64,000 nucleotides of DNA, taken from assembly GCA_964539135.1 (NCBI GenBank), contig CAZIFG010000001.1:83713-147712 (forward strand), given 5' to 3'. The position numbers were made by a program, and so were the translations under genes. This stretch comes from an uncultured Rickettsiales bacterium. Its GTDB lineage: Bacteria > Margulisbacteria > Marinamargulisbacteria > GCA-2716485 > CAZIFG01. Numbering within the stretch: position 1 is the first letter of the stretch; each line of letters opens with the position of its first letter. Shown in pieces: positions 4 to 56,880 of the stretch. The notes under the pieces are model-generated. The model was not told the origin of the DNA. It made no database searches and saw nothing but the letters and a program-made list of their open reading frames with translations.

Positions 4-654
4 TTGAAATTTTCTGAGGGAGAACTTCGTATCTTGCAACATTTTGTGGAGCATAGTGATCCTCTTTCGGATCTCTATATCTGTGAAGATATGTTTGGGT
101 CTCAACGTATTTCAGGGGAGTCTTTTTTTATGATGCTTGATTTTGTTGTTCAGACTGAGGCAGCCCGTTTTTTAGTTTCAGAATTTGTACGTTTTTTAGT
201 TGAAGGAGATACCTTTCAGTCTAAAAGGGATTTTCCTATTTTGTCTTTTTCAAAATCGCTCTTTGACTTGTTTTATGCTGAACCTGATATACTTTCTCGT
301 TTTTTAAGGCGGCTTACATTTAAAGATTCTCAAATTGAAGGTTTAGAAGATTTGAGTGTGTTTTATTCATTGCCTTATGGCTTTCGCTTCCATCCAGATG
401 TTGGACTCCATTTTGTAAATCGATATTGGAGATTTATAGAGGAGTCGCCTGTTTTTCGGGATAATGAAACAATAGCGTTTGCAGCGCTTAGACAAGATCT
501 TCAAGCTTTTAGATATCTGTCGCCTCGGCTTCAACGCGCTCTCTCTATTTCTAACTTTCTTGTAAACGAACCCAAGTTTATTTCGGGTTTGTTTGTTTCT
601 TATATGGAGTCTGTTTTAGAGCAGTACGCTTTAGATATGGAGCTATATAGTTAA
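4..654 (+). CDS. Hypothetical protein, possibly 5'-truncated by the window edge; DUF4116-like motif near the C-terminus
   Basis: 216-aa ORF; FRDNETIAFAALRQDLQAFRYLSPRLQ resembles the DUF4116 repeat pattern from memory. Confidence 0.5.
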   Translation: MKFSEGELRILQHFVEHSDPLSDLYICEDMFGSQRISGESFFMMLDFVVQTEAARFLVSEFVRFLVEGDTFQSKRDFPILSFSKSLFDLFYAEPDILSRFLRRLTFKDSQIEGLEDLSVFYSLPYGFRFHPDVGLHFVNRYWRFIEESPVFRDNETIAFAALRQDLQAFRYLSPRLQRALSISNFLVNEPKFISGLFVSYMESVLEQYALDMELYS

Positions 655-721
655 AATTCCGAGCTTTCGGACTCTTAGTGCCTTACAACTGATCCAAACG
701 TAGGTATGTTGCAACAGTCTC
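652..721 (+). mobile_element. Right half of the ~142-bp palindromic MITE/RPE-like element, overlapping the 3' end of the PfkB kinase gene
   Basis: TAAAATTCCGAGCTTTCGGACTCTTAGTGCCTTACAACTGATCCAAACGTAGGTATGTTGCAACAGTCTC aligns with the right halves of the copies at 13391 and 31731. Confidence 0.8.
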
Positions 722-1697
722 TTAATGTCTTTTTAGAGAGTCTAGGACCATACTGAGATACTACTTTTGCTGCTACGGAATTTGCGAGTTTTCCGGCCTT
801 TTCAAGACTTAATCCTTGAAAGATGCCAGCTAAAAAAGCGCCTGCGAAGGCATCTCCAGCGCCATTGGTATCTATGGCTTTTGTTTCAATTGCCGGAATG
901 GTGTAAAGGGTTTTGTCTTTCATGATCCATGCACCTTTAGATCCTCGTGTCATGGCAATCAGTCTTGCTTTTTCACTTAATGCGTTTATTGCGGCTTCAG
1001 GAGTATCACATTCTGTAAAGTGTTTGGCTTCTTCTTCGTTGCAAAATAAAACATCCACCCCCTGATAACTGATGAGACTGTTGAGTTCGGATTTGAAATA
1101 GGTGACCATGCTTAAATCGGATAAAGTCAGTGCGGTTTGGATCTTGTGTTTTATGGCATAATGGTGGGCCTGTTGGGCAGCCTCCAACCCAGAGGGTGAG
1201 GGCATTAAATAGCCTTCAATATAAAGCAGTTTTGCGGCTTGGAGTTGGGTGAAATCGATTTCTGTAGATGAAAAATCGGCGGTGGTGCCCAAGTAGGTGC
1301 TCATGGTGCGTTCAGCATCGGGCGTGACATTGACGAGGCAGATGCCGGTGGTACCACTTTCTAAATTTTGGGGATCTAAACTCAATTGAACGCCTAAGGT
1401 CTTCATGTCGTTTATAAAAAAACGGCCATTCTCATCGTCTGCAACTTTACAGGCATAGGCGCAGTTTAATCCGAGGCCTTGAGCGGTAATGAGGGTGTTG
1501 GCTGCAGATCCGCCAGACGCGCGTTCATGTTGGGTACCGCGAAAGGCGTGCAAGAGTTCCAGGAGACGGGTGTCATCGATGAGTTGCATTTGGCCTTTTT
1601 TTAAGCCTAATGCTTGAATTTCTGAATCGCTGGTTTCGATGGTGGTGTCAACAAGGGCATTTCCAATTCCAAAAATATCTAATGGTTTTGTGTTCAT
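675..1697 (-). CDS. PfkB-family carbohydrate/adenosine kinase
   Basis: GIGNALVD, SGGSAANT and DTNGAGDAFAG PfkB motifs. Confidence 0.9.
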   Translation of the reverse strand: MNTKPLDIFGIGNALVDTTIETSDSEIQALGLKKGQMQLIDDTRLLELLHAFRGTQHERASGGSAANTLITAQGLGLNCAYACKVADDENGRFFINDMKTLGVQLSLDPQNLESGTTGICLVNVTPDAERTMSTYLGTTADFSSTEIDFTQLQAAKLLYIEGYLMPSPSGLEAAQQAHHYAIKHKIQTALTLSDLSMVTYFKSELNSLISYQGVDVLFCNEEEAKHFTECDTPEAAINALSEKARLIAMTRGSKGAWIMKDKTLYTIPAIETKAIDTNGAGDAFAGAFLAGIFQGLSLEKAGKLANSVAAKVVSQYGPRLSKKTLRDCCNIPTFGSVVRH

Positions 1698-1700
1698 GAT

Positions 1701-54508: not shown

Positions 54509-55465
54509 GTGGGGCTTTGGGGTTATGGGGATGAATCGTTCCTCTATAAATGATTTTTCTGTTTTGTTTCGCGCTACAATTTCAATCTCAAGATTGTACA
54601 AACTGGCAATGTGACATAGAAACGTATCATAACTGATGAGTTTTTTGATCTTGGGGTGACTTAACAGCACGACGGTGTCTTCTAACGATAGCTGTCCTCT
54701 TAAATCCATCGTAATAAATTCGGGACATTCAGGTCTTTCTTTGTTGTCTTTTTGACTTCCAATATAGAGTAAGGCTGTATTTTTTTTGCTTTCTTTTTTT
54801 CCTAGGGTATGGAGTAGTGTTAATCTTTTGTAGGCTTGGTAAAAATGAGAGGCGACATAATCGTTGTATAGAGCGCTGTTTTTGTCAGTGGGAAGAGGGA
54901 TGGGTAATGAATGTGCTTGAAAGTTTGGGGCTTCTTGCGTTTGGAGTAATTTCGGTTGGGGATTTATTTTTACTTCTGTTTGTGTGTTGATGTAGTGACA
55001 AATTTGGAGATAGATGAGTTCTGAAATGGAGGCTTTTCCAGGTAAGGTTCTAAAATTGAGTCCTAATGAATGGTAGCTTCCCTTTAAGGTTTGAGAGAGA
55101 TGGTGTGCCATTTCATCCTTTGCCAGGACGATTTCTCCTGTTAATTCTGGTAATTCTTCTATTAAGGCAATTGGAATACCAGAGGCTTTGAAGAAAAAGT
55201 CCAGTGCGCTGGGTCCAATGATCTGGCAGTCGATGCCTTGAGATTGGAGTAATTTGAGAGGAGACCAAAAATAGAGTTGGTCTCCCAAGTGCATGAACTG
55301 AGGTTTAAAGCAGGCGACTACAATTTTTTTGTTGAACCGATGGCTCCCTTTTTTACACCATTTAAGTCCAGGCTCCTGATGATAGCCCTCTTTGTAGTGG
55401 GCTATTTTGGAGCCTATGAGTTGATAGACTTTGTTGATGTAGTAGGCAATCACCTTATCTGCCAA
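54488..55465 (-). CDS. Divergent GT9 (heptosyltransferase-like) glycosyltransferase
   Basis: HLGDQ near the N-terminus; [20 protein letters not shown] resembles the GT9 C-terminal motif. Confidence 0.55.
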
Positions 55466-56834
55466 TCATTTGTTCTGGTTTTACGGTTGCGTCAAACGCT
55501 TCTTCATTCAGTAAGTTGAGTGCCAGTGTGGCTTCTTTTAAGGTTAGATTTTCTTTATGGGCTTTTTTGGCAATGGCGGCTGCATTATCGTATCCTATTT
55601 TTGTATTTAACGCGGTGACCAACATCAGGGAATTATTTAAATTCTTTTTGATATTGACATAATTGGGTTCAATGCCTACAGCGCAGTGGTCATTGAAACT
55701 ATTTGTACCATCGGCCAACAACCGAATTGATTGCAAGAGGTTGTAAATGATGATGGGGTTGTAAACATTGAGTTGGAAGTTACCTGATGCTGCTGCAAAT
55801 CCTATAGCGGCATCACAGCCCATGACGTGTACGGCGATCATGGTGAGTGCTTCACACTGTGTGGGGTTCACTTTTCCAGGCATGATACTGGATCCTGGCT
55901 CATTTTCTGGAATGAGGAGTTCTCCAAGTCCACATCTGGGTCCAGAGGCTGACCAGCGAATATCGTTTGCAATTTTAAATAAGGATCCTGCAATGGTTCT
56001 GAGGACACCGCTCATTTCTGATAGGGCGTCATGAGCTGATAGGGCTTCAAATTTATTGGGGGCAGAAACAAAAGGCAGGTGTGTTTCTTTGGCAATGATA
56101 GCTGCTACTTTTTCGCTATATCCTTTGGGTGTGTTTAGGCCTGTGCCCACAGCCGTTCCGCCTAAGGCCAATTCATACAGATGTGGCAGTGCATTTTCAA
56201 TTCGTTTCAAACTGTTTTCTAATTGCTGTACGTAACCTGAAAATTCTTGGCCTACTGTTAAGGGCGTTGCATCCATTAAATGGGTTCTGCCAATTTTGAC
56301 AATGCCATCAAATTCTGTCGCTTTTGATGCAAAAGTTGCTTTGAGCCGTTTTAATGCAGGGATGAGGCGTCGGTTGATTTCTACAGCGGCTGAAATGTGC
56401 ATGGCGGTAGGAAAGGTATCATTAGATGATTGGGATTTGTTTACATCATCGTTGGGATGTATGGGGGTTTTGCTTCCAATAACACCGCCTGCAATTTCAA
56501 TGGCTCTGTTGGAGATGACTTCGTTGCAGTTCATGTTGGTTTGCGTGCCGGAACCGGTTTGCCATACTGTAAGCGGGAAGTGATCATCGAGTGTGCCTTG
56601 AATGACTTCGTTTGCAGCTTTGACAATAAGGTTTACCTTTTCTTGAGATAAAACGCCGCATTCTAGATTGGCAAGGGCGCATGCTTTTTTCATGACGCCA
56701 AAGGCTTCTATGAATTCTCTTGGAAAGGTTTCTCTGCCAATATCAAAATTTTGTAAGGATCGCGCGGATTGAGCGCCGTAATATTTGTCGCTTGGAACTT
56801 CGATTTCACCCATTGTATCTTTTTCAATTCTCAT
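55455..56834 (-). CDS. fumC: Fumarate hydratase class II
   Basis: [28 protein letters not shown] start 7 nt after AAGGA. Confidence 0.97.
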
Positions 56835-56862
56835 GATCATATCCTTTTTTGACTTAAATTCT

Positions 56863-56880
56863 GCTTTTCGCAACAGTCTC
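56863..56880. repeat. Lone terminal inverted-repeat remnant of the element family
   Basis: GCTTTTCGCAACAGTCTC. Confidence 0.55.

Follow-up and report, generated by a model that had tools for sequence, protein, structure and literature searches.

The stretch of DNA analysed here, referred to as the window, comprises 64,000 nucleotides from the small genome of an uncultured freshwater bacterium (G000:C1:83713-147712) and contains several copies of a hairpin-forming element of about 142 bp. With high probability, this element is a non-autonomous transposable element of the miniature inverted-repeat type (MITE) which has expanded throughout the host genome and was mobilised in trans by a DDE transposase of the IS5/IS1182 kind. 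The family shows the characters of a MITE: its members are shorter than 500 bp and lack a transposase gene, they end in terminal inverted repeats (TIRs) and are bordered by a target-site duplication (TSD) of fixed length and variable sequence, the copies are dispersed, and empty sites exist; an autonomous partner was seen in relatives only.

Copy number, structure and fold

The host assembly consists of 1,717,177 bp in 39 contigs and is 92.6% complete with 0.03% contamination. A family profile was built from 62 near-full BLAST matches and run over the whole assembly with nhmmer. This search yielded 179 hits at 108 non-overlapping places, 69 of which are full length, and the 108 places are spread over 28 of the 39 contigs. 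The genome-wide expansion which the initial annotation had suggested from the window alone is hereby confirmed. In total, full copies number about 69 and partial copies about 40, to which 31 solo or miniature ends are added. The latter are solo terminal repeats or mini-hairpins of 27-36 bp which consist of nothing but the two ends (e.g., C9:63040-63075, C12:38561-38596, and C12:22278-22313); they are presumably deletion products, and several of them sit directly upstream of start codons. In the window, the 12-mer GGGACTGTTGCG is found 22 times when up to two mismatches are allowed, compared with a mean of 3.15 (standard deviation 1.77, maximum 11) in 100 shuffles.

The TIR of the copies is GGGRCTGTTGCRAAA (the 15-nt end), and from there the pairing runs on along the arms. 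The majority consensus has 142 nt, and the pairwise identity of 68 full copies is 0.86 on average (range 0.67-0.96). The end-to-end distances are either 142 bp (23 pairs) or 136 and 137 bp (6 and 13 pairs, respectively), the shorter values belonging to a subfamily in which 5-6 bp beside the loop are missing. The whole element forms a single imperfect hairpin with arms paired along nearly the full length. Using RNA parameters, the consensus folds with -66.6 kcal/mol for the plus strand and -72.1 kcal/mol for the minus strand; G-T/G-U pairs account for the better fold of the latter. When three window copies were folded as single-stranded DNA, both strands gave z values of -4.5 to -7.8 relative to shuffled sequences, in agreement with the one-hairpin fold proposed earlier. 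The sequence is kept along the entire element, bulges included. The sole open frames have 47 codons and match no family, and a Pfam search with the encoded peptides likewise gave no match.

Target duplication and the partner transposase

We compared the 5-bp flanks of 68 copies. The two flanks are identical in 36 cases, differ by one mismatch in 15, by two in 10, and by three or more in 7. When partner flanks were shuffled 1000 times, identical pairs numbered 1.35 on average and 5 at most. Other repeat lengths between 2 and 9 bp fit poorly, with only 1-11 matches. The TSD length of 5 bp, first noticed at a few window sites, is thus consistent genome-wide. The duplicated target has the consensus A-T-N-W-T, with A at position 1 in 29 of the 36 exact duplications and T at position 5 in 33 of them. 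After background correction, significant information is confined to TSD positions 1 (A), 4 (W), and 5 (T). Hence, the target is near-palindromic, as would be expected if a DDE transposase cuts with a 5-bp stagger.

Among the genomes available for comparison, no other species shares the GTDB family or genus of G000, and empty sites were sought through same-order orthologues of interrupted genes. The uvrC gene (C5:76305-78098) holds a 136-bp copy. In all ten same-order genomes with a match, the UvrC orthologue aligns in two adjoining blocks which skip query residues ~133-176, and an alignment of six same-order UvrC proteins shows a clean 47-residue gap at the insert in each of them. Relatives therefore do have the empty site by which the insertion origin had been proposed to be checked.

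None of the 60 open reading frames (ORFs) of the window which were scanned in Pfam is a transposase, as the initial annotation had stated. Together with the TSD statistics and the 108 copies, this agrees with its view of a non-autonomous element mobilised in trans. A transposase bounded by the same TIR, which it had named as the thing to look for, was found in genomes of the same GTDB class and not in the G000 assembly. Of the 55 genomes of this class, 19 contain the 15-nt end (a reversed control gave 0 hits), and several of them have it in many copies (42, 16, 15, 14, 10, and 8 hits). In G037, a complete insertion sequence (IS) of 1,213 bp (L071:1402-2614) has ends which agree with the MITE repeat at 14 and 11 of the 15 positions, respectively. 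Its flanks form a perfect ACTTT/ACTTT duplication, and its 320-aa ORF (L071:1501-2460) matches DUF772 (PF05598, 1.2e-18) and DDE_Tnp_1 (PF01609, 5.5e-12). In G045, the end closes repeats at contig starts and bounds deleted elements of 853 and 760 bp with transposase gene fragments. Deletion derivatives with the same ends measure 853, 760, 812, and 372 bp across G045, G050, and G029. Altogether, same-end IS material in the class comprises the full IS of G037 and fragments in G045, G050, G048, G023, and G049. Homologues of the transposase N-terminus occur in 11 of the 55 class genomes, G000 not being among them. The resemblance to IS5/IS1182-type ends noted in the initial annotation proved apt, as the same-end ISs of the class encode DUF772 plus DDE_Tnp_1 and have IS1182 and IS5 as their best NCBIfam matches.

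The same end also bounds other miniature elements. G044 carries a different MITE of 133 bp which has the ends alone in common with the G000 family and is bordered by perfect 5-bp duplications in 10 of 13 cases. A metagenome scan with a 21-nt end returned 18 loci, mostly hairpin elements of ~121 bp, and no transposase lies adjacent to these 18 loci. Elements which share only the terminal repeat were seen at 133, ~121, 94, 112, and 149 bp in G044 and at the metagenome loci. Likewise, the G000 MITE shares with the partner IS its ends only. The data show that one IS5/IS1182-like transposase lineage making 5-bp duplications has repeatedly given rise to miniature elements. That this lineage also moved the G000 family in trans is what we infer from the shared ends and the shared duplication length.

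The sequence shows that the copies were inserted through a staggered 5-bp cut at A-T-N-W-T sites, with the 5-bp duplication as its trace. The enzyme acting in trans is proposed to be an IS5/IS1182-like DDE transposase, because same-class genomes have ISs with the same ends, the same 5-bp duplication, and such a transposase. Where a copy has entered a gene in the right phase, it survives as an in-frame insert of 47-49 residues, since element and duplication together make 147 or 141 bp and one frame is open per strand. As no partner IS is assembled in G000, the family is probably immobile there at present, or the partner lies in unassembled repeats.

Several observations weigh against this proposal. 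In the 92.6%-complete G000 assembly, which breaks at several other IS families, no transposase with these ends was found. A tblastn search of G000 with the G045 transposase fragments gave a best E of 0.45, and Pfam matches in G000 were zero for IS6 (PF13610), Tn3 (PF01526), rve (PF00665), IS1595 (PF12762), and DUF772 (PF05598). The only DDE_Tnp_1 match in G000 (C4:101-517) is an IS5_4-like remnant with other ends. The 320-aa transposase of G037 lies below the NCBIfam cut-offs (IS1182, 141.2 < 270; IS5_4, 132.5 < 140), so that its assignment to an IS family is tentative; moreover, the genome with this partner IS belongs to a different family within the class, and a single complete copy with a duplication was seen. 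Two or more mismatches in the duplication are present in 17 of the 68 copies. At the four window loci, no presence/absence polymorphism or empty variant was found in the contigs of two metagenome studies, which break inside the element. Finally, the strand preference of the copies described below exceeds what the target predicts: a background-corrected target matrix gives 0.55-0.58 (all 25 positions) or 0.41-0.42 (significant positions) versus 0.87 observed, and the left flank is barely more T-rich than the background.

The G000 assembly was also surveyed for IS material of other kinds. The remnant at C4:1-532 scores 127.6 bits as an IS5_4-like transposase (cut-off 140); the end of a different IS family takes the place of its N-terminal part. 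Inverted end pairs at a distance of 0.5-6 kb enclose housekeeping genes only. At least four other repeat or IS-end families lie at contig breaks with unassembled interiors, e.g., at C3, C7, C16, C22, C28, and C33; at C25, C29, C30, C32, and C36; at C14, C15, C17, C21, and C23; and at C2, C9, C14, and C38. A further repeat is located at the ends of C2, C16, C20, C28, and C31. Because such IS-end families stand at contig ends with unassembled interiors, a partner IS could be hidden in G000.

Three other explanations were considered for the family. The first is that the MITE was moved by a different DDE family producing 5-bp duplications, such as the Tn3 type, with the match to IS5/IS1182-like ends being coincidental. 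Elements of the Tn3 family generate AT-rich duplications of 5 bp, and their ends begin with GGGG; this would speak for such an origin, as would the lack of a partner in G000. Yet the Tn3 transposase (PF01526) has no match in G000, the repeat is identical at 14 of 15 positions at one end of an IS which itself has a 5-bp duplication, and the graded deletion derivatives with these ends hold IS5/IS1182-like gene fragments. The family differs on the same grounds from Tn3-derived miniature elements, its ends belonging to IS5/IS1182-like ISs. We consider a different DDE family very improbable.

Slightly less credible still is a hairpin repeat of the REP/REPIN kind, spread by a Y1 (HUH) transposase on single-stranded DNA at the replication fork. 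A strand bias would be natural for such an element, and the copies do show a strong one. In addition, G000 has two Y1_Tnp-like ORFs (C13:31458-31769, 44.5 bits; C28:5120-5452, 31.3 bits), the arms contain GTAG/CTAT-like tetranucleotides, and the apical core is kept in other lineages under different termini. REP/REPIN and IS200/IS605-type elements, however, leave no target duplication, whereas a 5-bp duplication of variable sequence is present at 51 of the 68 copies, and the termini of the element are those of ISs which encode a DDE transposase and show the same duplication. The hairpin element flanks neither of the two Y1-like genes, which likewise separates it from REP/REPIN elements with their RAYT, and by eye one of these ORFs looks like a helix-turn-helix (HTH) fusion without a clear HUH motif. 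The two Y1_Tnp-like ORFs encode 250 and 316 aa; by eye, one appears to begin with an HTH, and the C-terminal region of the other to be DnaA-C-like.

An exact core-motif scan found the loop-proximal motif GTCCTCATTTA(N3-7)TATAAAYTCCGG, which in the window copies lies at about model positions 50-90, in 12 stretches of species-representative genomes. These are labelled as Coxiellaceae, Legionellales, and gammaproteobacterial metagenome-assembled genomes and one Photobacterium. In all ten stretches that were folded, the motif tops long hairpins with other arms and termini. A copy with 75% identity and different ends is present in G015, a genome of the same class. Rfam gave no match at gathering over the whole window, and for one copy of the element with its apex motif, searched at E <= 10, only noise was returned: MIR5998 (20.7 vs. 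180 bits) and RAGATH-30 (12.3 vs. 59.5 bits) were rejected. The window contains no tRNA or tmRNA genes.

A primary host function, e.g., as an RNA hairpin with a regulatory or structural role or as a site bound by a protein, with copy number and polarity kept by selection and mobility being incidental, could draw on the conservation along the whole element including the bulges, the apex motif at hairpin tips in distant genomes with other arms, the better minus-strand fold through G-T/G-U pairs, and the uniform polarity, but is just as hard to believe as the Y1 scenario, given that Rfam offers no family at gathering or at E <= 10, that the flank configurations (23/19/13/12) show no consistent placement relative to genes, and that copies occur in 3' regions, divergent promoter regions, and gene interiors.

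Copy orientation and base skews

The copies of the IS5/IS1182-driven MITE proposed here are strongly polarised. Their strand is strongly clustered by contig: neighbouring copies agree in orientation in 43 cases and differ in 12, a result reached by none of 20,000 permutations. The plus strand of the model lies on the locally T-rich strand in 67 of 77 copies with at least 60 bits (87%) and in 97 of the 108 hits overall. Orientation is associated with AT skew (Fisher p = 2e-11) and not with GC skew (p = 0.32), and it tracks neither gene orientation nor rRNA orientation. The polarity of 87% is real, and it is a correlation with AT skew. With such a bias, either the insertion of the copies or their survival must be strand-specific.

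We noticed that the contigs form two compositional classes of similar total length, with 169 (class I) and 153 (class II) windows of 5 kb; the 64,000-nucleotide window belongs to class I. GC and AT skew have opposite signs in class I (concordant skews) and the same sign in class II (discordant skews), the two skews thus being decoupled in half of the genome. With the T-rich strand as reference, the GC skew at four-fold sites is about +0.43 in class I and about -0.11 in class II, and the corresponding AT skew is about -0.37 and -0.32, respectively. The model plus strand is on the T-rich strand in 36 of 38 copies in class I and in 31 of 39 in class II. Coding sequence lies on the G-rich strand to 57% in class I and 58% in class II. 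Only contig C9 changes class, at ~16-20 kb, where the GC skew flips and the AT skew stays. A chain of contig-end overlaps (C6-C39-C22) suggests a second junction with a flip of the AT skew, the link passing through a repeat. By eye, the class II rRNA and tuf fragments at contig ends are also on the G-rich strand. The dnaA gene is found at the start of a class I contig (C20:806-1291).

MITE subfamilies and identities are equal in both classes; hence, G000 represents one genome. A chimeric bin is unlikely in view of the contamination of 0.03%, these equal subfamilies and identities, and the same IS-end families at the contig ends of both classes. Simple models with a recent replichore inversion, with or without relaxation, were judged not to fit the base frequencies at four-fold sites, the purine content being 0.39 in class II versus the ~0.49-0.51 spanned by class I and its complement. 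An asymmetric target motif was likewise discarded as the main cause of the polarity, its predicted share being 0.41-0.58 as opposed to the observed 0.87. Among the substitutions in the copies, read on the plus strand, A-to-pyrimidine changes outnumber T-to-purine changes in both classes. An excess of C>T over G>A is seen only in class I (93:55, as against 67:55 in class II), a difference which we judged too small to decide which skew is current. In G044, nine of the 11 copies of the MITE with the same ends and an unrelated interior share one orientation with respect to skew, and all 20 contigs examined from this genome have concordant skews.

It is conceivable, though on balance unlikely, that insertion is coupled to a strand-specific process and that the fixed copies form a fossil record of a chromosome polarity unlike the present GC-skew axis. 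That polarity could correspond to a former replication axis or to a second, unidirectional mode of DNA synthesis.

Orientation effects of mobile DNA have been described before. The survey by Gomez et al. (2014, PMC3971601) reports, in the part consulted, that transposable elements, some IS5-type groups included, are oriented non-randomly relative to the chromosome strands, and links the bias to the beta sliding clamp; this part deals with transposase-bearing ISs and does not mention MITEs, whereas the present case is a MITE, reaches 87%, and follows AT skew rather than GC skew. The pneumococcal repeats BOX, RUP, and SPRITE are, in the portion consulted of the respective report (PMC3049150), just ~61-63% on the leading strand. 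Our literature search found no comparable leading-strand orientation bias of a MITE.

Window copies, in-frame inserts and related elements

The window holds four full copies, three truncated copies, and two to three solo ends. The family profile recovered all four full copies of the initial annotation (E between 1e-42 and 8e-49) as well as its outer shell, its deleted copy, and its half copy, and the alignment and flanks bore out the perfect AATTT, ATCTT, and TCTAT repeats and the four-of-five match AGTTA/AGTTG. Unless indicated otherwise, the copies lie on the plus strand.

The right-half copy (model 74-141) at 653-720 has an nhmmer E of 7e-15 and reaches into the 3' end of a minus-strand ORF (675-1694) which Pfam assigns to the PfkB-type kinases. 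The full 142-bp copy at 13391-13532 (E 8e-49) occupies 13386-13537 together with its perfect AATTT duplication, and its DNA folds have z values of -5.7 and -7.0. It begins 4 nt past the stop codon of a class-I Trp/Tyr tRNA synthetase gene, upstream of a serine hydroxymethyltransferase gene (these and the following neighbours are assigned by Pfam). The internally deleted copy at 26195-26267 (26190-26272 with its perfect ATCTT duplication; E 2e-14) consists of model positions 1-60 joined to the right end; the profile match spans 26195-26254, and the right-end remnant extends to 26267. This copy is situated between a class-II tRNA synthetase gene and secD. A further full 142-bp copy at 31731-31872 (E 4e-45, also folded as DNA) is bordered by AGTTA/AGTTG (31726-31877) and is placed between two divergent genes, one for a response regulator and one for the alternative-complex-III cytochrome.

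The copy at 44133-44270 (138 bp, E 2e-42, folded as DNA) belongs to the short subfamily with a 5-bp loop deletion and is located between the convergent genes for cox subunit IV and ctaA; a comparison of its flanks revealed no recognisable target duplication. The composite at 45231-45427 was dissected by profile and alignment. An inner copy of 137 bp (45270-45406), whose flanks agree at three of five positions, sits within a shell, 45236-45269 (model 1-34) plus 45407-45422 (right end), which bears the perfect TCTAT duplication. The composite may have arisen when one copy inserted into another, deleted one, or it may be the product of a rearrangement. In summary of their settings, the window copies lie past stop codons (13391, 26195), between convergent genes (44133), and in divergent promoter regions (31731, 45236).

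With respect to lone ends, two right-end remnants on the minus strand were retained. One at 49854-49865 has one mismatch in the 12-mer and lies upstream of a phosphoglycerate mutase gene; the other at 56862-56880 (17-19 nt) is ~30 nt upstream of a fumarase start codon. Both are 12-19 nt long with at most one mismatch in the 12-mer, for which the chance estimate is ~0.3 per window. The lone end previously placed at 13541 found no support. A further 12-mer with one mismatch, absent from the earlier list, is present at 13334-13345 within the upstream ORF.

The locus was found in two independent studies, a freshwater metagenome of 2018, probably its source, and a drinking-water metagenome of 2022, at 95-100% of the sampled words. 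The insertions at all four window loci are common to both, with contigs ending inside the element, and the junctions listed in metagenome contigs at these loci are cross-matches among copies. Apart from the element, the window encodes, at 28190-31681, a 1,037-aa GAF-GAF-SpoIIE-HATPase protein with STAS and response-regulator neighbours, in a genome of 1.7 Mb. An alternative-complex-III cluster followed by an aa3-type cytochrome oxidase cluster extends over 31907-47249.

Most copies are found outside genes: by crude ORF calls, 50 of 68 fall into intergenic DNA, and 8 extend more than 20 nt over the end of an ORF. The flanking gene configurations (23/19/13/12) reveal no consistent position or orientation relative to the neighbouring genes. 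Ten of the 68 full copies lie wholly within long ORFs, and eight of these are in phase 0. Including the duplication, the element adds 142 + 5 = 147 or 136 + 5 = 141 bp, each divisible by three; the 137-bp form does not preserve the frame. In the consensus, both strands are open in frame 0; among individual copies, the plus strand is so in 24 of 68 and the minus strand in 21 of 68.

Judged by the Pfam domains around the insert, five to six real genes carry a phase-0 copy. In UvrC, the GIY-YIG domain precedes the insert and the UVR and RNase-H domains follow it. The G domain of FeoB is split by the insert, which in a GHMP kinase separates the N and C domains and in an NAD-epimerase lies within the Rossmann domain. 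In DapF, 23 residues precede the insert and both domain matches are downstream. In a BamB-like protein, the domain is upstream of the insert and 113 residues follow. Three further ORF copies, 1-7 codons from the ORF start, probably lie upstream of the true start.

Such inserts recall the Rickettsia palindromic elements (RPEs). Like RPE-1, the family consists of palindromic repeats of ~140-150 bp with a frame-compatible length in a small genome, and like RPEs, as their behaviour is described in the consulted part of PMC10969869, it forms in-frame inserts in genes for conserved proteins, here of ~47-49 residues. The in-frame insertion is a likeness of behaviour to RPEs and not membership. The resemblance to RPE-1 suggested by the initial annotation found no support at the sequence level: four open-frame translations of two window copies matched no NCBIfam family, including the RPE1 model TIGR01045, at E <= 10, and the bacterial lineage is a different one. 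Furthermore, the present family has clear TIRs, a 5-bp duplication, and an identifiable partner IS family; to our knowledge, none of these three has been established for RPEs.

The MITEs of Coxiella burnetii are similar in other respects. QMITE1 is 300-400 bp long with 2-3-nt repeats, and QMITE2 is 150-190 bp long with 7-11-nt repeats and is a target of IS1111, according to the consulted part of Wachter et al. (2018, PMC5896051). From the same part, both are hairpin MITEs with tens of copies in a small genome, many lying just past stop codons or overlapping ORF ends, as is the case here. The G000 element differs by its 142 or 136-137 bp and its 5-bp repeats, and no C. burnetii record was among the 12 hits of the exact core-motif scan in species-representative genomes. 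The family belongs to a known kind of element, the MITEs, and appears to be a new family, set apart from QMITE1 and QMITE2 by their published size and repeat length as far as consulted. No description of it was found in the literature searched, and 11-mers of its end occur only as unrelated primers among the matches listed.

With regard to ISs of the IS5/IS1182 type, the likeness consists in partner ISs of ~1.2 kb with DUF772 and DDE_Tnp_1 and in inverted repeats of at least 15 nt common with the MITE. The differences are that the partner transposase lies below all curated NCBIfam cut-offs and that the MITE has only the ends in common. ISs of the IS5 group duplicate 4 bp and IS903 duplicates 9 bp, whereas the duplication here is 5 bp.

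For the host, the family accounts for ~15 kb of "intergenic" hairpins, for the 47-49-residue inserts in essential proteins, and for several contig breaks. In metagenomes as well as in many of the class genomes, different miniature elements are driven by this one 15-nt end, which amounts to repeated births of MITEs from one transposase lineage. The 87% polarity far exceeds what has been reported for other small bacterial repeats and is not explained by target preference; if it does record a former chromosome polarity, the orientation of MITEs would become usable to read past replication direction. If the proposed mobilisation holds true, the family would be a frame-neutral, RPE-like element with a known mobilising enzyme. 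"Selfish DNA inside genes" of the RPE type would thereby be tied to a concrete chemistry of TIRs, a 5-bp duplication, and an IS5/IS1182-like DDE enzyme, which would make the origin of such inserts testable.

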